DNA of 64,000 nucleotides, from assembly GCA_977017645.1 (NCBI GenBank), contig OZ360231.1:93062001-93126000 (forward strand), given 5' to 3'. The DNA comes from Torpedo marmorata. Lineage: Eukaryota. How positions within the stretch are numbered: position 1 is the stretch's first letter; each line of letters starts with the position of its first letter. Below the pieces are notes generated by a model. It searched no databases, was not told where the DNA came from, and worked only from the letters and a program-made list of their open reading frames with translations. Below, piece by piece: positions 9,415 through 30,834 of this stretch. The translations under genes were made by a program, and so were the position numbers.

Positions 9415-9960
9415 GCCACCCCCCGTGTCCCCCTCCCCCCCGTGTCCCCTCCCCCATGTCCCCCGACACCCCCGTGTCCCTCGACCCCCCCGTGTCCCCC
9501 GACCCCACCCCGTGTCCCCCGACCCCTCCCCCGTGTCCCACGACCCCCCCGTGTCCCCAACCCCTCCCCCGTGTCCCCCACCCCTCCCCCGTGTCCCCCA
9601 CCCCTCCCCCGTGTCCCCCACCCCTCCCCCGTGTCACCCGACCATCCCCCCCGCGTCCCCCGAACCCCCCCGTGTGTCTCCCCCGACCCCCCCGTGTGCC
9701 CCCCCCGACCCCCCCGTGTGCCCCGACCCCCCCCCCCGTGTGCCCCGACCCCCCCCCCGTGTGCCCCGACCCCCCCCGTGTGCCCCGAGACCCCCCCCGT
9801 GTGCCCCGACCCCCCGTGTGTGACCCGACCCCCGACCACCCCCTGTATGACCCGACCACCACCCCCTGTGTACCCCGACCACCCCCATGTGCCCCGACCC
9901 CCGACCACCCCCCGTGTGCGACCCCCGACCACCCCCCGTGTGCGACCCCCGACCACCCAC
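9415..9960 (+). repeat. C-rich degenerate minisatellite (~18-22 bp units, ccccgtgt(g)ccccgac)
   Basis: Direct inspection; produces the six-frame P/G-rich pseudo-ORFs at 9112-10226. Confidence 0.9.
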
Positions 9961-9974
9961 CAGGGGCGAACGCT

Positions 9975-10060
9975 AACACGGAAGTGCTTCCTCTAGTTTT
10001 GGTCCGTTTGCTGGAAGTGACGTCAGGCGCTGCAGGTCGGTGGAAGAGAAGATGGCGGTG
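9975..10060 (+). promoter_or_regulatory. CpG-island housekeeping-type promoter of KLHL15 (ETS, ETS-CRE composite, YY1)
   Basis: cggaagtg 9979-9986; ggaagtgacgtca 10013-10025; aagatggcgg 10049-10058; CpG-rich context upstream of a strong donor at 10272. Confidence 0.7.
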
Positions 10061-10271
10061 GTGGGTTGGAGCTGACACTCAGTTTGGGGGGCGGGGGGGG
10101 TGTGGGGTTGGGTTGGGGGGTAACGGCGTTGACTTCACTGGCGGCGAAGCCGAGTGTGGAGAGGGAAGAAGGGGAGGGTGGAGGAGCGAGGGCACCGAGA
10201 CAGTCCCCTTCGTGGATCGCGGTTAAAAGGAGGGTGGAGTTGGATGTGAGGAGCGGTGGCTACTGATGTTG
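10026..10271 (+). other. KLHL15: Putative non-coding exon 1 of KLHL15
   Basis: Follows the promoter motifs and ends at TTG|gtgagt (10272); TSS position is approximate. Confidence 0.55.
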
Positions 10272-11671
10272 GTGAGTGAGGTGGAGGAGAGTTGGGGGCA
10301 CCCAGTGGGTCATTGGTGTCCTTTTCAGTAGAAACCGTTACGGAAACGAGATTAATGATTTTCAGTTTTCAATTCAAACACATCCCATCTCTTCATCTAA
10401 AGCGGAAGGAGGTCTATGGAGGGGTTAAACTTGCAGGCAAGTTTGTTTTTAGAAAAGCCCCTTCGTCCTGATTCCAGCGCTTGTGAGTTGTGTTGTACGT
10501 ATCTAAAATGAAAGTTTGTTAAGATCGACGTTTGAAGTCTTCTGGAAACAAATAGGAGGTATTTCTGAACGTGGCTGGAGTCATTAAAACCATTGGTACG
10601 TGTTTTTCTTGGGTTACTGAAATTTGAAGGGTAAGTGTTTGTTAAATTGTTAAGCAATTTGCAGAAAAATATGAAGAAGTGTTTAAGACAAGTTCTGGAG
10701 GTTTAGTCTATAATATTTGTGGCATCCTATATAGCATAATGCGAGACAAATTTGCATTGCGATCACAAAGACACATTAAAATTTAACATTTTTCAAATTA
10801 TGGCTTTGAGTTTCTGAATTATGGGAATGACCCAGCCAAGTCTTGAGAAGGGTACAAAGACAGTATAATCCCAAATGCCTTATAATAATGTGGGTATGCA
10901 TAATTGGGTTAGGCGATTAACATAGTTGGCTTTTTAGCTTGTGTGCATTTTGTGTGAGGGAAGTTTAAATATTGTTCTTCTAAATAGAACAAGTAAGCCA
11001 GTGCTTGTGTTAAACCACTGTATTAAATACAACTTTTTCCAAACATTTGTAAATAAGAATATAGATTGAAATAATTGGAACAGCTTGAGTCAGGTGACTA
11101 AATAGTTTCTGAATGGAGTGCCATGAAATATGTATGACCATTCATTGAATATAAGCATTTGGAACTGGAGTCGGATTTTCAACTCCTCAAGTCTTTTTGC
11201 TTATTTCAATAAAGTCTTATTGTAACCTCAACTTGATCTTAACCTTCATAACCTTTCAGCTCTCTTTGTCAAAAGTTAACTAACCTTTGTCTGAAATATT
11301 GAAAAAAATCTCATCACTTTTAAAAGGGCAGTCTCTTATTTTTAACAATGAGCTCCAGTTTTGGATTTTCTCTCAAAAGGAAATATCTTCACATGTCCAC
11401 CCAGTCAAGACTTTTTAAAAATTGGTATTACAGCTTTAGGATTTAGGATTGTGCATGGAAGTATTTTTCCTTCCAGTTGAACAGCCTATCATCTCAAGAC
11501 AAGGGAATAAAAATTCCTAATGGGCAAGTATGAAACCAGTAGCAAGGAAAAAAGGAAGTTTGAAATGCCAGGGATATTTTTCTCTGTTGCAGTAAGTATT
11601 AGAGGCTAGTTACTTGAATAGTAATAAGAAAATATTTTCAAACATTTTCATTTTTCCCCCTTGCCATGCAG

Positions 11672-11796
11672 GAGCCGCTTGCTAATGTGGAGCCTCTGTT
11701 AGGCAGGAGCACGGGACGGTCAGGACTGAGGACCCCATCACGAATTCTGTCGATGTCACTGCACACTTGTTCAATGGACAGTGCACTTGCAGGAAG
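11672..11796 (+). other. KLHL15: Putative non-coding exon 2 of KLHL15
   Basis: Polypyrimidine tract plus cag| at 11671; AAG|gtgagc donor at 11797; consistent with the recalled four-exon structure of human KLHL15. Confidence 0.55.
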
Positions 11797-12388: not shown

Positions 12389-14286
12389 GATGATATGTAA
12401 TACCACTTAACAATCCTTCACTTACTGATCTATTTTGAGATCAGTCAGTGATAGCGGAAGATATGAGGTGAAAGTTTATTTTCTTGATGATGGGAAGTAC
12501 CCTCCTAAGGCAGCCTGGTAGAGATCAGATCTTGCAGTGTAATTTGGCTGCATCTATTTTTCTCATTTGCCAGTTTATTAGTGTGCCATCAAACTATTTG
12601 TAGGCAAAGCAATAACTTGTAAGCACCCTATGTGATTTTTGTTTCCTCTCTCCAATACATGTTCAAGGCTGGAGCTGTATGTCTAAATTTAAAAACAATA
12701 TCTCACTGAGAATGAATTCATTGTTCTTGGCCTCTCACCAGAGTCGGCGTCAGAAGAGACCTAATCGGGGGGGCATTAGGGTAACCGCGGGAGGGGGGGG
12801 CACAAACTGCCATTCGAGAATTCACTCAGCGGGGGGGGAGCGGGTGCCATACCTGCCATGGACCTCCTCCGTACACCGCGCCGTCACATTTCCCCCTCCC
12901 TCCGGCGTTTCAGACAAACGCGCGTGCTTATAGCGCGTGGAGACGAAACCACGTGATTCATTTTGGTGACACCCCCTCTGATGGCGTCACCGATGCAGTT
13001 GATAGCCACAATTGAATTCTTTATTTCGTTGTTCAGTTAAAACCTTTCTTCAGAGAATTGAATGTTAATCTGCGCATTTTTGATGTTTGAATCAGATTCA
13101 CAATCCAAAGATGACTGCACAGAACTTTCAGTTACTCTTAAGAAACAAATGAAGTCTGTGTCCAATAATTATCAAAGAATAAGCTAAAGTGGTCGAACGG
13201 AAGGGACCGGTTTCAACATGGAACTATCAACTATCTTACAGTACAGGGAAAAGCGACCAGTTTGTTTGATATAACTTTAAAAACGTATGAAGTCGGACAC
13301 TTTGGCACTTGATAGGTTTTGAAATTTTGAAAAAACAATCCGGTCGTTTTTATCTGCACTGTACTTTGAGCTTCTTTCGTATTATTTCACGTGAGCTCGT
13401 GTTATACACTGTTTGATTGTGATATATCTGCTTAGTTTGTATTTGTGAGATTTACAAAATGCCTAGATGAACACAATCTATTAGTTAAAATCTGTTCTGT
13501 AACCTCGTGTAAGGTTAGACGAACTCATGGAGAATAATTGCACTGTTATACGGCACTGACTTTTTGGCTGATCTTGGTATTCTCAATTGCATTTCTAAAT
13601 TCCAAATTTAATTTTACTGAAGTAATTTGCACTTCCTGTAGATAATTCACAACACCATCAAAGGTTGTTTTCCATTCAGGATATTTTTATTTTGTTCTTT
13701 GATGATTAATTTAATCTATATCCTTTCCGATCAACCAGTGGCATTAGAGTAAACACAGTTGATTTTACAAGAATACAACATCCAGACTTGGGAAACTTGT
13801 GCTTTTTAAAACCCCCATTGCTCATCTCTAAACACACACGCCGTTCCTTATATACTCAAAGTGCTGTCAAGATGAGAGAAACAAAGTTTATATTATGTAA
13901 TCAGATTCTCCCATTTCTTATACCTTGTTTCTCATACCTTGAGGAAGAGCACAAGACCGAAACGTCGGTTATATGTAGTATCTTTGCCTCCTATGGACGC
14001 TACGAGACCTGCTGAGTTCCTCCAGCATTTCTGTTTTTACTACAATCACAGCGTCTGCAGACTTTCCTGTTTCACTCGCGTTTCTTATCACTGACTTTAC
14101 CTGACACTCATCGCCGCCCTTTCACTTTGGGTCAACGTTTAATGCAGTAGTCTCCCAAATATTGGGCAGAGTCTGACTTCACCTGTGCCATCGCCCATGA
14201 AGACTTTCCAGGTGTGAAAACATACAGTCAGAAAATCCGTCAGACCTCTCAACTTTCCCAAGCACCTATCGCCGCCTCTGCCTTAC

Positions 14287-14467
14287 CAGGGTTCCTCAGT
14301 TTCCTGTTCCTCAGCACCAAGATGATGACCAGCATGTTGCCCAGGATGTCCACAACGACGGTGAAGATCAGGACTGCGGCCAGCGCCGTGGTGACTCTGA
14401 CCCCGGCGAAGGGAGTCCTTTCCGATTCCCAGGAGTCGGGCTCTGAGCAGTTCCCATCTTCAACCAT
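14287..14467 (-). pseudogene. Orphan melatonin receptor (MTNR1/Mel1 family GPCR) coding exon 1
   Basis: gcaATGG start; MVEDGNCSEPDSWESERTPFAGVRVTTALAAVLIFTVVVDILGNMLVIILVLRNRKLRNP-G|gtaagg; TM1/ICL1 signature of melatonin receptors with the conserved phase-1 intron (181 nt = 60 codons + 1); no exon 2 in the window; paralogue not assignable. Confidence 0.85.
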
Positions 14468-14496
14468 TGCCACTGCTTTGCATTCAACTCCCAACC

Positions 14497-17400
14497 ATCA
14501 GAATTAGAATTTATTGTCATGAACAAGTCATGAAATTCGGTGTTTTGCGGCAGCATCATAGTGCAAACATTATAACCATCTTACGACATTACACAAAATA
14601 TATAAATAATAGTGCATGAAAAGTAAGGCAGTGTCTTTGGTTCATTGATTATTCAGGAATCTGATGGCAGCAGGGAAGAAGCTGTCCTTGTGCTGTTGAG
14701 TGCTCGTTTTCAGGCTCCTGTACCTTTTTCCCGATGGAAGCAGAGTGAAGAGGGCATGGCCTGGGTGGTGGGGGTCTTTGAGGATAGAGGCTGCTTTTTT
14801 AAGACACCGCCTCATGTAGATGTCCTCGGAGTGAAGTCTGGTGCCTGTGATGTCGCAGGTTGAGATAACAACCCTCTGGAGTTTATTCTTGTCCTGGGAG
14901 TTGGCGCATCCATACCAGGCAGTGATGCAACCAGCCAGAATGCTCTCCACGGTACACCTGTAGAAGTTTACGAGAGTCTTTGGTGACGTACCGAATCTCC
15001 TCAGACACCTCACAAAGTATAGCCGCTGGCGAGCTGCCTTTGTGCTTGCATCAACGTGGAGGCTCCAGGACAGATCCTTGGAGATGTTGACACCCAGGAA
15101 TTTGAAGTTCTTGACCCTTTCCACGACTGAGCCCTCGATGAGGACTGGGTCGTGTTCCCCTGACTTCCTCCTGAAGTCCACAATAATTTCCTTGGTTTTG
15201 CTGATGTTGAGCGCGAGGTTGTTGTCATTATACCATTGAACGAGCTGATCTACCGTATATTTTGGCGTATAAGTCGAGTCTTGAAACCCTCAAATATCTC
15301 TCAAAAAATGGGGGTCGACTTATATGCCAGATATACTTTTGAGACCTTAAATTCAGCTCAAAAACCGCTCCATGCCGATTCGGCCTATAAGTCGACCCGT
15401 GAAAACCTGATTCGGCGTATAAGTCGACCCGTGAAAACCTGATTCGGCGTATGTCGACCCTTGAAAACACGATTCGGCGTATAAGTCGACCCTTGAAAAA
15501 CCAAATAAAAACCCGACTGCAACAAATTTTCATTGAAATTTTTATTGAAAACAACACATTTAGAACCCTTCAAAATCACTTTCGCTATCATCGTCTGAGG
15601 CAAAGATCTCGGCAAACACATCCGGGGTCTCGCTGTTTAAACAGTCATCATACGGGTCCCATTCTGTATCCGCTTCGTCACAGTGTCCCACAACAAATCA
15701 TCTTCCGTACCATCAATTGCACAAGAGTTACCGCACTTTTTAAACGATTTTATTACAGTCTCTACTTTCACTTTGTCCCATGCCTTGAGCACGAAGTCAC
15801 ACAGCACATCAAGCGATGCAGCACGCATTGCCCCACCTTTTGTAAATAATTTTTCTGCACTCAACATCCATGTATTCTACTCTTCATGCACATGGTCTTT
15901 GAATGGCTTGTTCAAGCAGACATTGAGAGGTTGCAATATAGACGGGATAACCGCCATGTAAGTATTATGTTGTGCTAATCTACTTTTAGTGTTCTCAGTT
16001 AAGTGGCTATGAAACATATCCCAGACCAGCAAACTATGTTCCTTGCGTAAACCGCCTGGCCGCCTGTTCCACACATTGTCTATCCATAATTTTACACCAT
16101 TTTCATACATCCATCCTTTTTCATGAAAATGTACAAAAATACCCGCAGGAAATTTTATTTTAGGTTTAAATTTGCGTTTGAAGATTACCATGGGTCTTAA
16201 CTTTGTCCCGTCAACCATGCACGATAACACCACGGTAAACCTGGTCCTTTGATGGCCTGTACTACTGGTTTGCACAGTTTTTACACCTTTCCATTCCACT
16301 GTTCTAATGCCTATCATGTCAAAATTCATGGGGGTTTCGTCCATGTTTCCAATATTTGCCAATGCAAACTTGTGTTTGTGCCGGTTACGTATAATAAACT
16401 GGTGAAAACTTACAACTTTATGATCAAGATCTTTTGGTAGTTTCTGAGCAATTTTTGTTTTTCCTGTTCATGAAACGGTTGCACCAGCCTACTGTAGCTT
16501 CAAAATTATTACTGAGTTCTGGGTGCGACTTTGCCCACTTCAGTGTAAATGTTCTTATTTTATTTCGGGTGACTAGCAATCTTGCCTCTGTTCACGTACC
16601 CATGCTGCGACATGATTTTCCAACTGTGACCAACGAGTGATTCCTCTTCTCATCGAACATTGCCTTTTTGGTATTTTTCTTAAAGTCTCTTCTTTCTTTC
16701 TCCAATCTCTTACCAACTTATATATATCAAATTTTCTTGCAGCAGCACAGTTGTTGGTTTTCTTGGCCATTTCTATCACTTTTAATTTAAAACTCGCCTC
16801 ATACTTTTGTCGTTTCAATGGACCCTCCATGATAACAATCACCTCCTGCCAACGCCCAGCAGCTCAATCATCGTGATAGTTGTGGGTCGACTTATTCGCC
16901 TGTCAACGCCCAGCATCTCAGGCATTGCGATTTTTTTTTTTGGGGGGGTCGACTTATATGCCCGATATACAATAAAACCATTAAAATGAGGCTGAAAAAG
17001 GGGGGTCGACTTATCTGCGGGTCGTCTTATACGCAGAAATGTACGGTATCTCCCTCCTGTACGCTACCTCCTTGCCGTTTGTGATTCTGCCAACAACTGT
17101 GGTGTCATCGGCAAACTTGTAGATGGCATGGGAATTGTGCCTGGCCACACAGTCATGGGTGTATAATGAGTAGAGCAGTGGGCTAAGCACGCATCCTTCG
17201 GGTGCGCCTATGTTGATAATAAGTGAGGAAGAGCCGTTGTTTCCAATTTGTACTGACTGGTCTTACGATGAGGGGGGTACAGAGACCTAGAGTTTGTAGC
17301 TTCTTGACCAGCATTGAGGGAATAATGGTATTGAAGGCCGAGCTGTAGTCGATGAAGAGCAGCCGTGTGTATGAATTGCTGTTTTTGAGGTGATCCAGAG

Positions 17401-18276
17401 CTGAGTGGAGAGCCAGCGATATTGCATCTGCTGTGGAGCGATTGTGACGATAGGTGAATTTTGCAGTGGGTCCAGATCTTTGCATAGGTACGTGTTAATT
17501 CTGGCCATGACCAGCCTCTCAAAGCATTTCATCACAGTAGAAGTTGGTGCTACTGGGCGGTAGTCGTTGAGGCAGCTCACACTACTCTTCTTGGGTACCA
17601 GGATGATTGATGCCCTTTTGAAGCAGGTGGAAACCTCTGACTGCCGCAATGAGAGGTTGAAAATGTCCGTGAACACTCCGGCTAGTTGGTTGGCGCAGAT
17701 TTTCAGTACCCTGTCAGGTACGCTGTCAGGGCCTGACGCCTTGCGAGGGTTCACCATCTTGAATGATGTTCTGACGTCGCCCTCAGAGACAGATATCACA
17801 GGGTCCTCAGCCTTTTCAGGGATTCCAGTAGGCACTGTTTGGTGGTTCTTCTCAAAGCGGGCATAGGTGTTCAGCTCATTGGGTAGTGAAGCATCACAGC
17901 CGTCTGTTGTGTTCGCCCTCGCTTTGTAGGCTGTAATGGCCTGCACTCCCTGCCATAGCTGGTGTGTATCTGTCTCTGTCTCCAGCTTCCTCCGGAATTG
18001 CCACTTTGCTTCAGAGATGGCCTTCCGCAGGTCGTGCCTGGTCTTCTTGTAAAGATCCCGATCCTCGGCTTTAAATGCCCTTGTTCTCGCCCTCAGCAGG
18101 TTGCGAATTCTCTGATTCATCCAGGGCTTCTGGTTGGGGAACACCCGGTATGTGCACGTGGGCACCTTCATCCACGCAGATCTTGATGAAGTCGGTGACA
18201 CCTGTTGCATATTCATTCAGGTCTATGGATGAGTTCTTGAATATGTTCCAGTCCACCGATTCAAAGCAGTCCTGCA
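14497..18276 (-). mobile_element. Rex1/Babar-like LINE (same family as 3830-5880), split by a pogo insertion
   Basis: ORF pieces 17287-18216 and 14642-15181 are near-identical to the 3830-5880 copy; the sequence resumes exactly across 15251/17048. Confidence 0.9.
15253..17046 (-). mobile_element. Full-length degenerate pogo-superfamily (POGK/Passer-like) DNA transposon
   Basis: TIRs ccgtatattttggcgtataag / cttatacgcagaaatgtacgg; TA TSD at 15251-52 and 17047-48; transposase fragments RQKYEASFKLKVIEMAKKTNNCAAARKF (Brinker-type DBD), IGNMDETPMNFDM, LLVWDMFHSH, LQPLNVCLNKPFK (DDE_1); frameshifts present. Confidence 0.92.
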
Positions 18277-19019
18277 AGTTTCAACTAGTTAATCCATTTT
18301 GATTACAATTAATTTTCTAACACAACTAAAACGGCATGACTAGTTGGAGATTGGGGTGCGTTTTTGAATTTAAAGGTTTGTTTTGCAATATAATTAATGG
18401 AAACTTTGTAACGATATTCAGGAGTTCAGTAACAAAGGTAGAAGTTCATGGCTTTGGGCCTTATTAGGCAGCAGAAAGACCTCGTTGTTTCAATAATGGC
18501 AGAATGCTTGGCAATGTATTTATCCTCATTATTGTATTGCCACTCCTCACCCCAGGAGTGGTTCTAGGGGAAGAAGAGGATCACCAGAAATAAGGAATAC
18601 AGGCATCTGAATTACAGTTTGCATTCATGCAGTTCTTCTTAGCTAATTTCTGATCATCAACAGCTGACAGAGGGCCAGAGTTTAGACGTTTTTTTTTCCC
18701 AAAGGATTGCCAAAGGAGAGGCTTCCAATTCTCCAATGCTTTATAGTAAAATTACGATTGTGGTAATTGCAGATACTCCTACCACTCTTTATTGGTGAGA
18801 TTGACTGAAAATTGATGTTAGCGCTTTCTGGTTGTGATTGACTTAGCAAAAGATGTGTGCCAGGAATTGATTGGGTGTATGTTACTTCAGGGTTACAGAA
18901 TTTGAGGGAAGAAATCAATGCTGAGTGTACTTTGGCCTGGTCTATTTTGTAAGAGCATTATCGCAAAAAATTAATCCTGAGAGCCAGGTGTAGCAAAATG
19001 ATTCTTCTAAGTAAAGCAT

Positions 19020-19335
19020 AAACTTTTTTTTCACTGAGGTAGGTGGGATACAAACCAGAGGACATGGGTTAAGAGTGAAAGGGGAAAAGTTTAGGGGGTA
19101 CATGAGGGGGAACTACTTCACACAGAGAGTGGTGGGGGTGTGGAACGAGCTGCCATCTGAAGTGGTGAATGTGGGCTCAATTTTAACATTGAAGAATTTG
19201 GACAAGTATATGGATGGGAGAGGTATGGAGGGCTATGGACTGGGAGCAGGTCAGTAGGACTAGGCAATAAAAATGGTTTGGCACAGACTAGAAGGGCCGA
19301 AGAGGCCTGTTTCTGTGCTGTAATGTTCTATGGTG
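19020..19335 (+). mobile_element. CR1-type LINE 3' end
   Basis: TRGHGLRVKGEKFRG..RGNYFTQRVVGVWNELPSEVV; tail gggccgaagaggcctgtttctgtgctgtaatgttctatg. Confidence 0.8.
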
Positions 19336-21937
19336 CATAAATTTTGGATCGGGGAAATATGCCTGAAGGTTATATCTGACAGTTGAGCCAGTTGTAATTT
19401 TACATTGCTATGGCAAGTGCTGGATGGTACTTTGGCTTTTCTTTTGAAACTTGTAATTGTCACTTATGCAGGCCACAGAAACTTTGAAGTAACACATAAC
19501 ATTCCCATGCATTTGAGTCCTTGAATTGACAATAGATAGGACACTTTTTAGAAACATGCTTGAAAAAGGGTCACGTGGATAAGATACTGATCTGTGTCCC
19601 GAGAAAAACTTCTACCTGTTTGAACAAGAAAGAATAATTAACCTGACTGATCAGCTACATTTTAATGCACAAGAGGTTAATCCCCTTTTGTTAGCTCATT
19701 ACTTTTTCACTGTAGTTACAAGGTACAAAACAGTAAAAAAAATTTGTAACTAATCTGTAGTTGTTGTACAGTATCAACATGTTTCTGGAGTTTCCATACA
19801 CCACAAGCTATTTGACATATCATGCCAGTGTCACAGTTGGTTTTGCTGGGATCTTATTGTAGCTGATTCCCATCTCACTGCTGCAAACTCCCAAAAGCTT
19901 TACTATTTTTCGCTCCAGGCTTGTGCTGTTTGCCAAAAACACCACCTTACTTTTTGTTGTGGCTCACTTAAGAATTTCAACTGTTTGATATAATTTCAGT
20001 AAACTTGCTAATATCGTCTTTTAAGATGAAGCATTGTTTATTGGTTGTCTATGGATTAGGATCAAACTTGTTTTTCTCTGGCTATTGGTAAAATACAATA
20101 TATTTTTATTCCTGTTCTCTCCCAATGAATTTGATCACTGGGAAATCAGTGAAATACCAAAAGGTAAAATACTCTTTAAAGATTTAACAGCTTCCTAATT
20201 CAATTATTTGGGTGCAGGGTTTAAAATCCTCGGGTAGGTCCACAAATGTCTTCAGCAATTAAAACATTTAAGCTGTGCCTGACAGAAGGAATTAATTAAA
20301 TTGTAAATTGCAGGTGAAGTTGTGAAAATTGCTCTTATTAAATTTATACATGACTCTGCCGGTGCTTTCTAATAGGATCAGCAAAATAATTGATAAACTT
20401 GTGTCGAGCTTCTTAAATGTAGATTTAAGTTTTGGCTAGAATGACTTGGCTTCAAGATAAGCCTGTGATTCTGATATTAGGTCCCTTTCTTGGTGTCAGG
20501 TGAGTTTGCTGTTTGACTGAGATGACACTAAAAGAGTAAAATTTGGCTCAGCCAGAACTTCATTTCATTAGCACTTTTAACAATTTTGGAATTGTGCAGG
20601 TTTTAAATTTAAATTAACGCAATTGCAATAGTCCACTGTCTCATACTATACAAGAGGAGCCAGAGCGTGACATGTAATAGAATGTATTATATTTGAAATG
20701 AAATTGCTGAAAGATATGTCTTAATCTTTGTGTAAATGGGGCAGGAGTTGGCATTTGCCAGAGAAAAGGGATGAAAGGGCACAGCAGTCCTCCCAAATTT
20801 GGTGGTAGGACATTATTGTCTTTATGCCCTTGTTTCCCACCTGCCAGCAGGCATGATTGGGAAGATGTGTCAGAAAGCCACCCAAAAAAGTTCACAACAA
20901 AAGGGAATCCACAGCAATCAAAGAATTGGGACAGGAAATGAGAGATTCAAACATCTGCCGGATGTTTGAATTTAATGCTGCACCTACTTTGTTGTGCCAA
21001 GCCTTGGGAGATCTCTTTGGCCAGCATTAAATTCAAATGGTTGCCAAACTCTGAGGACTGATCCTTGATGTTCCTTTTTTTCAGTGTCAGCTACCCTCAA
21101 ACTAATTGTGGTTAAACAGGGAGAAATTAGGTGAGGTTAGATATTGCATATTTAGTATTTTAAGTCTCTGATTCTCTCCTTTAAATATTTCACCACCCTT
21201 GAGTCTCTTTAAGAAAATGGTGGTGGGGTTTTAAAGAGACCAGATTCCTGTCAGTCACCTGATGAGTTCTGAGAGCAGATAAATAGTTTCTGACCTCATA
21301 ATTCAGGATATTTTTGCATTGCAGCTGCCATGTTAGTATCGGTCCTATTACTGTATCTCAGTACATCTTTGAAAGATGCATGGCATGCTTCCTTATTACT
21401 GATTATAACATGTCAGTTTATTATCACCACTCAGCTTGTGTGTAGATTGGCCACTTACCTAATCTATTCAATAGATTAATTAAAAATCATGAGTGAAATT
21501 TTCCAATCTGTTGTGATCGTTGCATATATTGATGGTGAGTCATTGGAATATAAACTGATCATAATGGTGAGTTAGTACTGAAATAAATAACTTGATAGTC
21601 TTTCAACTAAAAACCTTGACTGGCCATTTTCTACTCATGGATGCTGTCTAACCTACTGAGTGCCTCCAGCAATTCTTTGTTTGCTCAAGATTCCAGCATC
21701 TGCAGCTTTTGTTTCTCTCATTGAATTAATTAGCCTCATGCAGAATTAATTATGTAAAATTCCTAAAAATGTAACTAACTTGAATATTATACTACATCAG
21801 AGGTTTTAAAGATGTCATGGTTAATGTCAGAGAAAAATGTGGTGGTTGGGGTAAGACAATAATTCTATAGGTTCTTTTAAATGTTTTCATTTTACCTTGA
21901 TACACAAAGATTCAACCTTTTCTGTTTCAGAGTATTG

Positions 21938-22642
21938 ATGGCTGGAAGCGTGGATGTGTACAACTCCTCTGTTCATGACTCCTGCGTCTCCTCAGGGTTT
22001 AAAACTCTGTACGAGGAGGGATTATTGTTTGATGTCACCCTAGTTATTGAGGATCACCAGTTTCAGGCTCACAAGGCACTACTGGCTACACAGAGTGACT
22101 ACTTTCGAATAATGTTCACAGCTGACATGAGAGAGCGGGACCAGAACAAGATTCACCTTAAAGGACTTACTCCAACAGGCTTTAGTCACGTTCTTCAATT
22201 TATGTATTATGGCTCCATTGAACTGAATATGAGCACGGTCCATGAGATCCTACAGGCAGCCATGTATGTCCAGTTAACTGAGGTGGTGAAATTCTGCTGT
22301 TCTTTTCTTTTGTCAAAAATCTGCTTGGACAACTGTGCAGAAATCATGCGACTTTTAGATGATTTCAATGTTAATATAGACGGTATCCAAGAACAGCTAG
22401 ACAAGTTCCTACTGGAGAATTTCGTACCACTCATGACCCGATCTGATTTTCTGTCCTACTTGAGTGTTGAAAAGCTTTTGACATGTTTGGAAAATGATCA
22501 ACTGAGCCGATTCCCAGAGATTGAGCTCTTTGAGGCTGCACAGGCCTGGCTGCGACATGACAGAAGCCGTTGGAGGCACACAGATGCCATTGTTCAGAAT
22601 GTCAGGTTTTGTCTGATGAATACAACAAGCGTTTTGGAAAAG
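21938..22642 (+). CDS. KLHL15: Kelch-like protein 15, first coding exon (BTB and BACK domains)
   Basis: Acceptor tttcag|21931, ATG at 21938; MAGSVDVYNSSVHDSCVSSGFKTLYEEGLLFDVTLVIEDHQFQAHKALLATQSDYFRIMFTADMRERDQ; 235 codons; donor AAG|gttagt. Confidence 0.97.
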
Positions 22643-23765
22643 GTTAGTATGTTTGAAAGCAGTAACCAAGTCACAGCACTAAAGCTAGACCATTGTGTGC
22701 TGTGAGGAAAGTATCAGTCAGGATCCAGTTGCCCTTTGCTTTAGCTAACTGATTTATTACAATTAGCAGCTACTCTTTACCTTTTACTTTTTAACTTGTG
22801 ATGATTGTGAAGGATTCTGATGTCATATGGTGATGGAATATCAAAAAATAAGTTTCATCGTGTACTATGATTTAAAGATTTTTTTAATAAAATCTAAGAT
22901 AATGGATGAAATGCTTTGGTCCAGCATTTTATAACATTGATTTCTGGTTAATATTCTTGGGGTGAAAGATAGATTTTTTTGAATGATTCCTAAGTGCAAA
23001 TTTTTATATTGTTTTTATGGTAATCGCTGAGCTTTAATTTTTTTTCAAGCTAGAGGGATTCCTATTTCTGATATTCTTTTAGTTGTGAATGACAACACAG
23101 ACACGTAGGGATGTTGAAGTGGATTCTAACAAGCTTCTTGGCCACTGGTGCTTCGATATTTTCACCACTTGGAACTAGGATTGATCCAGGCAGGGTGTTT
23201 ATCGCCTGTACTTAGAAATCTCAGAAGATAGTACAATGTAGAGGAAAGAACAAAGAAACAATTACTTTATGGATGAACAGTCAAAGGATGATTTCACATG
23301 ATTAATGATCAAAGCATGAAATCCACATTAAAAACAGACTTCCATGGCTTTGGGTATCTAGATTTGATGGATTAATGGCAAATCTTGATGTTTTTGTGAA
23401 ACCATTTAATCTAGAAATGCTTTTCTAAGTTTTCACAATATTGGTCTCCAGCAGGCATTTGATCTTTATCCTTCTGTGGTGGTGGTGATCCTGTCATCTT
23501 CTCTTGTGCTGTACCTCTGGGAAGCAGGCTCATGAACACTTGTTTTCTTGTTTAAACTCCAATCCAGTGGGGTCCTTGTAAGAAGGGATTTGAGCTCAAA
23601 CTTTATCCAAGCACATCTGCTTGGACATCTTTAGAATTAAGAGACAATTAGCAAACAGTGCAGAAACTGCGATATTTGTGCTTGTCATTGTCTTGTGAAT
23701 TAAAAAGAAACAAATTAATCTAAATGCCCAAAATCTTTGAATTTAGGCTGAGGAATGAGGAAGGC

Positions 23766-29724: not shown

Positions 29725-30834
29725 GTAAAGACATCCGAATTTTATCACTACTCACGACAGCTTCGTTTTGAGGTTGAACAGGCTTTAAGCTACTTTCAGA
29801 ACATGAATCACCAACCACTCTTGGAGATGAAATCTAATCGCATTCGTTCTGCCAAGGCACAAACTGCAGTTTTCCGAGGGATGATTGGACATAGCATGGT
29901 GAATAGCAAGATTCTTCTGCTGCACAGGCCCCGTGTCTGGTGGGAACTGGAGGGTCCACAAGTGCCACTGCGACCTGAGTGCCTTGTAGTTGTCAACAAC
30001 TTTGTATTTTTGTTGGGAGGAGAAGAGTTGGGTCCTGATGGTGAATTCCATGCTTCTTCCAAAGTCTTCCGGTATGATCCCCGACAAAATTCGTGGCTGA
30101 GAATGTCTGATATGTCTGTTCCCCGATCAGAGTTTGCTGTTGGCATCATTGGAAAGTACATCTATGCTGTGGCAGGCAGAACAAGGGATGAAACCTTTTA
30201 CTCAACTGAGCGTTATGATATCACACAAAATAAATGGGAATTTATCGATCGATATCCAGTTAATAAATATGGCCATGAAGGAACCGTTCTCAACAGTAAG
30301 CTCTACATAACGGGTGGGATAATGTCCTCTTCAACCTCCAAGCAAGTATGTGTTTTTGATCCCAGTAAAGAAGGCACTGTAGAACAACGGACAAGGAGAA
30401 CGCAAGTGGTTACCACATGCTGGGAGAATAAGGCTAAAATGAATTATGCACGCTGTTTTCATAAAATGATTGCCCACAATGGGAAACTTTATGTTTTTGG
30501 TGGTGTGTGTGTAATTTTACGTGCATCCTTTGAGTCTCAAGGCTGCCCATCAACAGAAGTTTATAATCCTGATTCTGACCAGTGGACTATCCTAGCATCA
30601 ATGCCCATAGGAAGAAGTGGACATGGAGTGGCAGTTGTTGAAAAACAGATAATAGTCCTTGGTGGCCTTTGTTACAATGGTCAATACAGTGACTCCATAC
30701 TCACCTTCGATCCAGAAGAAAATAAATGGAAAGAAGATGAATATCCAAGGATGCCTTGTAAACTGGATGGCCTACAAGTCTGTAGCCTTTACTTTCCTGA
30801 CTTTGTCCTGGAGCATGTTCGAAGATGTACCTAA
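29725..30834 (+). CDS. KLHL15: Kelch-like protein 15, last coding exon (kelch repeats)
   Basis: Acceptor ctcag|29725, phase 0; VKTSEFYHYSRQLRFEVEQAL...WWELEGPQVPLRP...RMPCKLDGLQVCSLYFPDFVLEHVRRCT*; spliced protein is 235+369 = 604 aa, the recalled length of human KLHL15. Confidence 0.97.
   Translation, partial: VKTSEFYHYSRQLRFEVEQALSYFQNMNHQPLLEMKSNRIRSAKAQTAVFRGMIGHSMVNSKILLLHRPRVWWELEGPQVPLRPECLVVVNNFVFLLGGEELGPDGEFHASSKVFRYDPRQNSWLRMSDMSVPRSEFAVGIIGKYIYAVAGRTRDETFYSTERYDITQNKWEFIDRYPVNKYGHEGTVLNSKLYITGGIMSSSTSKQVCVFDPSKEGTVEQRTRRTQVVTTCWENKAKMNYARCFHKMIAHNGKLYVFGGVCVILRASFESQGCPSTEVYNPDSDQWTILASMPIGRSGHGVAVVEKQIIVLGGLCYNGQYSDSILTFDPEENKWKEDEYPRMPCKLDGLQVCSLYFPDFVLEHVRRCT

Follow-up and report, generated by a model that had tools for sequence, protein, structure and literature searches.

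A first exon of the melatonin-receptor gene MTNR1C in a kelch-gene intron of Torpedo marmorata, very probably one copy of a multicopy Pack element

The captured exon in the window

A stretch of 64,000 nucleotides of the Torpedo marmorata genome (assembly GCA_977017645.1, contig OZ360231.1, positions 93,062,001 to 93,126,000 of the forward strand; below called the window, its contig C43) holds an isolated first coding exon of a melatonin receptor, antisense in an intron of a kelch gene. The exon is very probably one of at least 26 copies of a non-autonomous, multicopy Pack element with terminal inverted repeats (a Pack-TIR), likely of the hAT superfamily, which carries 1.95 kb of the 5' end of the melatonin-receptor gene MTNR1C. 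The vehicle is a miniature inverted-repeat transposable element (MITE), and in the window its cargo adjoins a long interspersed nuclear element (LINE). The first-pass annotation, which described the exon as an orphan, missed the multicopy TIR transposon as vehicle. The remnant and its immediate neighbours are as follows, in window positions.

12739..14500, minus strand: remnant of the Pack element (MITE plus MTNR1C cargo), 88-89% identical to full-length copies over their positions 514-2325 (last base 12739)
12731..12738, minus strand: expected right-hand 8-bp target site, adjoining the terminal TIR
12739..12995, minus strand: 3' part of the ~370-bp MITE, ending in the TIR (12739-12752)
12996..14286 (start approximate), minus strand: captured start of MTNR1C intron 1, ~1.3 kb, differing from the parent at 85 of 1214 sites
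14287..14467, minus strand: captured MTNR1C coding exon 1, 60 codons + 1 nt, with an open frame and a GT donor at 14286
14468..14500, minus strand: final 33 nt of captured upstream/5' untranslated (UTR) sequence, the first 3 nt common to the LINE tail
14497..15252, minus strand: 3' part and tail of the LINE (PF09004 match; 92% to the LINE copy in locus L008)
15253..17046, minus strand: DDE_1 (Tigger/pogo-like) DNA transposon within the LINE (PF03184, E=6.6e-17; LINE match interrupted at 15252/17047)
17047..18277 (upper end approximate), minus strand: upstream part of the same LINE by its match, 5'-truncated

The exon, read from 14467 to 14287 on the minus strand, is 181 nt long and open. It has an ATG in good context, an NCS sequon, the first transmembrane segment (TM1) and the phase-1 donor G/gtaagg, all as first annotated, and when the frame is read past the donor a stop codon follows after 74 residues. 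In the PDB it matches melatonin receptors best (MT1, E=1.6e-9), which bears out the identity given at first sight, and its two database relatives are both ray proteins named MTNR1B-like (Narcine, 92%; Mobula, 83%). The exon was also rightly described as an unspliced genomic copy; a processed pseudogene is rejected, as 1.3 kb of intron 1 is kept and exon 2 is absent. Compared with the parent exon 13 of 181 nt are different, and the changes of the window exon comprise five that alter an amino acid and five that are silent, with six of these ten at CpG. Two conserved residues had been reported as changed. The S-to-L replacement at codon 50 is real and is a CpG transition, while RNPG is not a change in the window copy because the parent, Narcine and Mobula proteins carry it too. 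The captured intron has short internal inverted repeats (13237-13370 and 13678-13724), which are present in other copies as well.

The window copy is without the 5' ~510 bp of the element, the 5' TIR included, and ~430 bp of upstream cargo have thereby been lost. A deletion of ~20 bp lies across its junction between cargo and MITE. The same-strand LINE reported ~30 nt upstream of the exon is indeed present: its match extends to 14497, and its tail and the cargo meet 33 nt above the ATG, where they share 3 bases. The LINE is presumably Rex1-like. The DDE_1 transposon inside it has short subterminal repeats near 15370-15500. A likely later arrival of the LINE, with loss of the 5' end of the element, is the simplest reading, and it agrees with the earlier suggestion that a DNA-level duplicate was subsequently struck by the LINE. 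The parent 5' UTR, whose resumption at ~18277 had been named as possible support for such an insertion, is neither there nor anywhere else in the window. A perfect partner of the 8-mer at 12731-12738 was sought across 14400-22000 and was not found. A 1895-nt contig of related organism B tracks the intron flank to 12738 and diverges exactly at the TIR boundary; this single contig, with 269 onward letters unseen, hints at an empty site.

Copies, vehicle and parent gene

When window positions 14100-14520 were compared with the 6.2-Gb genome, 30 matches were obtained from 28 of 28 candidates. Only the window's own match extends into the LINE tail. The unit shared with the others is 12739-14500, and in other copies it continues for a further ~510 bp. 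A full-length copy (2325 bp between termini) used as query gave 85 matches from 40 scored candidates; merged, they represent 27 loci, of which one is the parent and 26 are copies, distributed over 20 contigs. The number of copies is a lower bound, and the copy on C44 is known from an internal piece only. The orphan is thus not a unique event. The 5' junction between MITE and cargo lies at MITE position ~103, shows 1 bp of microhomology and is identical in all 22 copies that keep it. The copies likewise have the 3' junction in common, with ~3 bp shared and almost no MITE sequence lost, and in seven of them, the window copy included, local deletions span it. A ~103-bp deletion from the 3' cargo junction is present in the copies on C25 (49.4 Mb), C39, C22 (16.9 Mb) and C59, either as a derived subfamily or through recurrent microhomology deletion; these four form no clade in the cargo tree. 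Insertions, not all of them classified, interrupt 15 of the 25 other copies, and one comes from the LINE family seen in the window. In related organisms A-C several contigs per site meet the cargo region, which hints at a multicopy family there as well, although the summed depth gives no copy number.

These copies bear directly on the proposal that the exon was brought into the intron by LINE 3' transduction. The proposal was prompted by the same-strand LINE tail, which adjoins the upstream sequence of the exon. However, the LINE junction is found in no other copy among the 30 matches, and the other copies begin with a TIR ~510 bp further up and have 8-bp target-site duplications (TSDs). The downstream end of the window copy is a TIR without a tail. 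A LINE at the same position in the parent had been named as possible support, but the parent upstream sequence runs continuously across that point. Transduction is therefore considered extremely unlikely.

The vehicle is a MITE of ~370 bp with TIRs of 14 bp, which have two mismatches and begin with CAG, and with TSDs of 8 bp. Among the 30 loci retrieved with the element's 3' end, 27 are MITEs without melatonin-receptor cargo. An exact 15-nt junction motif occurs 329 times and its reversed control 125 times; its first 30 matches comprise 24 empty MITEs, two elements with a second cargo, two copies of a related element and two chance matches. A family size of hundreds is supported. The 3048 candidates of a first look were rejected as a copy number, being a mere candidate count. 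Exact 8/8 TSDs are found in 10 of the 18 cargo copies with both ends called, all ten different, while mismatched pairs used as control gave 0 of 306. Matches at six or more of the 8 positions are found in 12 of the 18, and 20 of 37 empty MITEs have exact TSDs. The defining marks of hAT elements are an 8-bp TSD and short TIRs beginning with CAG, and Helitrons have neither TIRs nor 8-bp TSDs. The superfamily is thus likely hAT, a label resting on termini and TSD length because no autonomous partner was found among the 30 of 150 PF05699 loci examined. The element is not described in the literature searched; Repbase and Dfam lay outside that search, and the MITE may be catalogued there.

Three observations concern elements near or resembling this family. 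At C47:66609275-66610881 (L140:9276 to L141:881) there is a diverged MITE relative whose ends are ~1.4 kb apart; it may be an older Pack element. Loci L199 and L201 hold a different small element without these TIRs, in which MITE positions ~81-190 surround an A+T-rich insert of ~220 bp. Near-identical hAT-domain matches lie hundreds of kb apart at C47:95.4-99.7 Mb (L107, L109-L117, L119, L127, L131 and L132), which suggests a large tandem or segmental repeat.

Melatonin-receptor genes have two exons, the first ending after TM1, and four chondrichthyan paralogues are described (PMC7541902). In the parent locus exon 1 lies at C47:66655318; exon 2 is intact and follows 114 kb downstream on the same strand, at C47:66769704-66770567. 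Its exon 2 is 95% identical to the Narcine protein. The Narcine protein served as query in the exon-2 search, where 117 of 3193 candidates were scored, and all exon-2 results given here are within that scope. Other MTNR exon-2 matches lie on C1 (70%) and, in part, on C31 (75%). The latter, L043 (C31:1902982-1903266), belongs to the MTNR1B clade, and matches query residues 60-154 only; an interruption or partial assembly may be the cause. The scored hits did not include a fourth exon 2 of MTNR1D-like type. A receptor tree was built from 31 sequences, namely 28 proteins chosen from 120 listed and three exon-2 pieces of this genome, with no row labelled MTNR1D. It places the parent inside the Mel1c/GPR50 group to the exclusion of 1A and 1B, with bootstrap 100, and the parent is therefore MTNR1C, the database names notwithstanding.

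The parent matches the element over query positions 102-2056 only, and neither MITE end is present there. Three parts make up the cargo: ~460 bp from upstream of the exon, exon 1 itself and the first ~1.3 kb of intron 1. It spans a CpG island (observed/expected ratio 0.74-1.03 over C47:66654500-66657000, and 0.14-0.21 immediately downstream) and would contain the MTNR1C promoter. MTNR1C (Mel1c, the GPR50 orthologue) thus supplies the cargo and has the same exon 1 end after TM1. It also has an exon 2, whereas the element copies have none, and no seven-transmembrane receptor can therefore be made from them.

Another possibility raised was a functional melatonin-receptor gene nested here, whose intron would be very long. 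The parent intron is itself 114 kb long, and because of this the 14 kb without exon 2 prove little by themselves. Among the scored hits, however, no MTNR exon 2 lies on the window contig, in keeping with the first impression of none nearby, and the sole 95% exon 2 is the parent's on C47. Moreover, the copied intron ends at the MITE end after 1.3 kb. Such a nested gene has next to no probability.

The reading of the exon as a copy of a multicopy Pack-TIR has the following points against it. The window copy is without its 5' TIR and hence has no TSD pair of its own for comparison, and LINE insertion and deletion stand in an order that is inferred. The empty-site interpretation depends on the one contig from organism B, its last 269 letters unread. 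In six of the 18 testable copies the TSDs match at five or fewer of 8 positions, although the copy on C2 fits with a 1-bp offset. An autonomous partner was not found, and 30 of 150 PF05699 loci had no MITE ends in their 1.5-kb flanks. Finally, an empty MITE of the family is absent from the 217 kb around parent exon 1, which hold only a split copy with another cargo and a diverged relative.

Capture, amplification and decay

The same MITE has taken up a second cargo. Upstream of the captured MTNR1C segment, at a distance of 5.6 kb, there is a family member whose interior, used as query, found 32 of 32 candidates. The features concerned are the following.

L144:9174-9285 (C47:66649173-66649285), on the strand opposite to that of the captured MTNR1C segment: split copy of the second Pack family, with pieces to ~66644780
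Loci L155-L193: second Pack family, ~30 copies of ~700 bp with a ~490-bp cargo at the same internal MITE site

Of the first 12 second-family loci fetched, 11 are elements of ~700 bp with both ends, and seven of these 11 have TSDs that match at 7 or 8 of 8 positions. The locus C43:39755611-39756084 (L189:311-783) matches the interior only, at 92%, and is without MITE ends. CpGs are changed there at 2 of 45 sites, and in the second-family copies at 62 of 637. Judged from these sequences it is the source of the second cargo. The 5' junctions of that cargo and of the MTNR1C cargo are no more than a few bases apart, and the former has 3 bp of microhomology. One and the same internal site of this MITE thus received two CpG-rich segments that are unrelated to each other, and both were amplified. 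The ~700-bp family was also considered as a longer progenitor of the MITE and was rejected, being the second Pack family.

The capture itself would have begun with a break or a stalled fork inside the ~370-bp MITE, at about position 103. Repair in which the template was switched to the CpG-island 5' end of MTNR1C, through microhomologies of 1-3 bp, would have given the chimera, and a transposase acting in trans would then have mobilised it repeatedly in one short burst. Gap filling and FoSTeST (stalling of the fork, a switch of the template and transposition) are both conceivable as capture routes, and the present data do not separate the two. FoSTeST calls for a donor transposable element near the parent and for outgroups without an empty element at the first Pack site. 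The family member with the other cargo lies 5.6 kb from the captured segment, and the star-like tree gives no founder. A simple role as donor is excluded for this second-family copy, since MITE sequence kept in the first family is absent from most second-family copies. A second-Pack copy so close to the MTNR1C parent is unexpected and unexplained; rough arithmetic gives about 1 in 10,000 for ~32 copies and a distance of at most 10 kb from a point.

The cargo tree is star-like, with one node of support at or above 80. Outside the exon, non-CpG divergence from the majority is 2.1% for the copies (809/37828) and 3.3% for the parent (53/1589), which suggests that the capture took place shortly before a single burst. 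For 14 empty MITEs the figure is 3.6% (111/3100). Of the CpG sites, 105 of 702 are altered in the copy exons and 1 of 32 in the parent, a pattern that methylation of the copies and an unmethylated parent island would fit. The copies would thus likely have been methylated and have then decayed.

One copy would have been inserted antisense in the 5'-UTR intron of the kelch gene. Later the LINE would have entered the copy ~30 nt upstream of the ATG; the 5' ~510 bp, which include the 5' TIR and the likely promoter, would have been lost, and the DDE_1 transposon would subsequently have moved into the LINE.

The fate of the copies after the burst must be considered as well. The window copy or another copy of the same origin could have been exapted and make a TM1-only peptide of 74 amino acids, RNA antisense to the kelch gene, or a chimeric transcript via the donor. 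Frame, ATG and donor are intact in the window, full-length copies hold the CpG-island upstream region of the parent (observed/expected 0.74-1.03), and at least 30% of Pack-TIRs are transcribed as chimeras according to the text of Tan et al. (PMC8277862). A putative RNA contig of related organism C (166 nt, depth 3.7) covers 14291-14456 without three letters specific to the window; it fits the parent as well as a copy and speaks neither for nor against expression. A look-up for expression listed no RNA holder. Exaptation is improbable. The window exon has as many amino-acid-changing as silent changes, most of them at CpG, and its upstream cargo is largely gone. Among the 23 exon-bearing copies, ten keep full length, an open frame and a GT donor, three have in-frame deletions, four have stops, five have frameshifts and one has a large deletion; the open frame of the window copy is not special, because these ten are equally open. 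The pooled copy exons have 117 amino-acid-changing changes, three stops and 66 silent changes, a non-silent share of 64.5% against 61% in a context-matched neutral expectation (p=0.37), and by this measure they decay neutrally. No functional role is indicated for the window copy, and it is likely a neutrally decaying, non-functional relic.

Host gene, known Pack elements and significance

The captured exon lies antisense in the 5'-UTR intron of a kelch gene, because the coding start of that gene is at 21938 and a non-coding exon precedes the insertion. The host exons recognised in the window are the following.

11672..11796, plus strand: non-coding exon of the host kelch gene, flanked by the splice signals AG/GT
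21931..22645 (end approximate), plus strand: first coding exon of the host BTB-BACK-Kelch gene, ATG at 21938
29725..30834, plus strand: Kelch-repeat exon of the host gene

A putative RNA contig of related organism C covers 11671-11796 and thus the non-coding exon end to end. The antisense position in an intron was correctly annotated from the start, and the gene is presumably KLHL15. A C-rich tandem repeat (9420-9960 and 10000-10271) is found directly upstream of the gene's likely first exon and CpG island (candidate donor at 10272).

Gene-fragment capture and amplification by cut-and-paste transposons is common in plants (PMC8277862). For animals, Tan et al. (2021) report 370 Pack-TIRs in 100 genomes, with four of 281 unique ones multicopy and none in the elephant shark (PMC8277862). 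The parent locus is without transposon ends, the MITE also exists empty and the copies share chimeric junctions with distinct TSDs, and since these are the defining features of Tan et al. the element is a further multicopy Pack-TIR. Pack-hAT-N8_XT of Xenopus tropicalis and three other frog/alligator families are likewise short non-autonomous TIR elements with an internal host fragment (PMC8277862). Junction microhomology, TSDs distinct for each copy, copies far from the parent and GC-rich cargo are shared with the animal multicopy cases (PMC8277862).

The present element differs in number and size. At least 26 copies stand against three in the worked example of Tan et al., which has a 291-bp UTR cargo, and 1.95 kb of cargo against a median of 224 bp (PMC8277862). 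Unlike the families as presented in the sections of that paper compared here, it includes an entire coding exon together with the upstream region and the donor, it belongs to a MITE with two unrelated cargoes at one internal site, and its host is a cartilaginous fish (PMC8277862). Copy number and cargo are larger than in the cases compared here.

Ssk-FB4 of Drosophila melanogaster has also captured 5' upstream and coding sequence and been amplified by repeated transposition, but it holds nearly a whole gene, is expressed and selected and has TIRs of ~700 bp (PMC8277862). The element in T. marmorata has exon 1 only and TIRs of 14 bp, and its copies are fixed-looking and neutral. Plant Pack-MULEs and the gene capture by bat Helitrons (PMC4224331) are further examples of gene fragments amplified by DNA transposons, of different classes. 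The MITE family may conceivably be a vertebrate counterpart of the Pack-MULEs, with one capture hotspot that repeatedly takes CpG-island, likely promoter DNA, amplifies every chimera to dozens of copies and scatters GPCR cassettes of promoter, first exon and donor, some of which start chimeric or TM1-only transcripts. This is doubtful, and of its parts only the hotspot with two cargoes is observed.

The family is a rare vertebrate case in which a captured piece of a gene has been multiplied, and one small MITE family has carried out capture and amplification at least twice at the same internal site. Since the two parents have been preserved together with empty elements, the junctions and dozens of TSDs, gap filling and FoSTeST can be tested against each other in a vertebrate by the use of comparative ray genomes. 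For the melatonin receptors themselves, more than 20 spurious copies of a "melatonin receptor exon 1" can mislead the annotation of MTNR1C, its PCR amplification and its quantification by RNA-seq.

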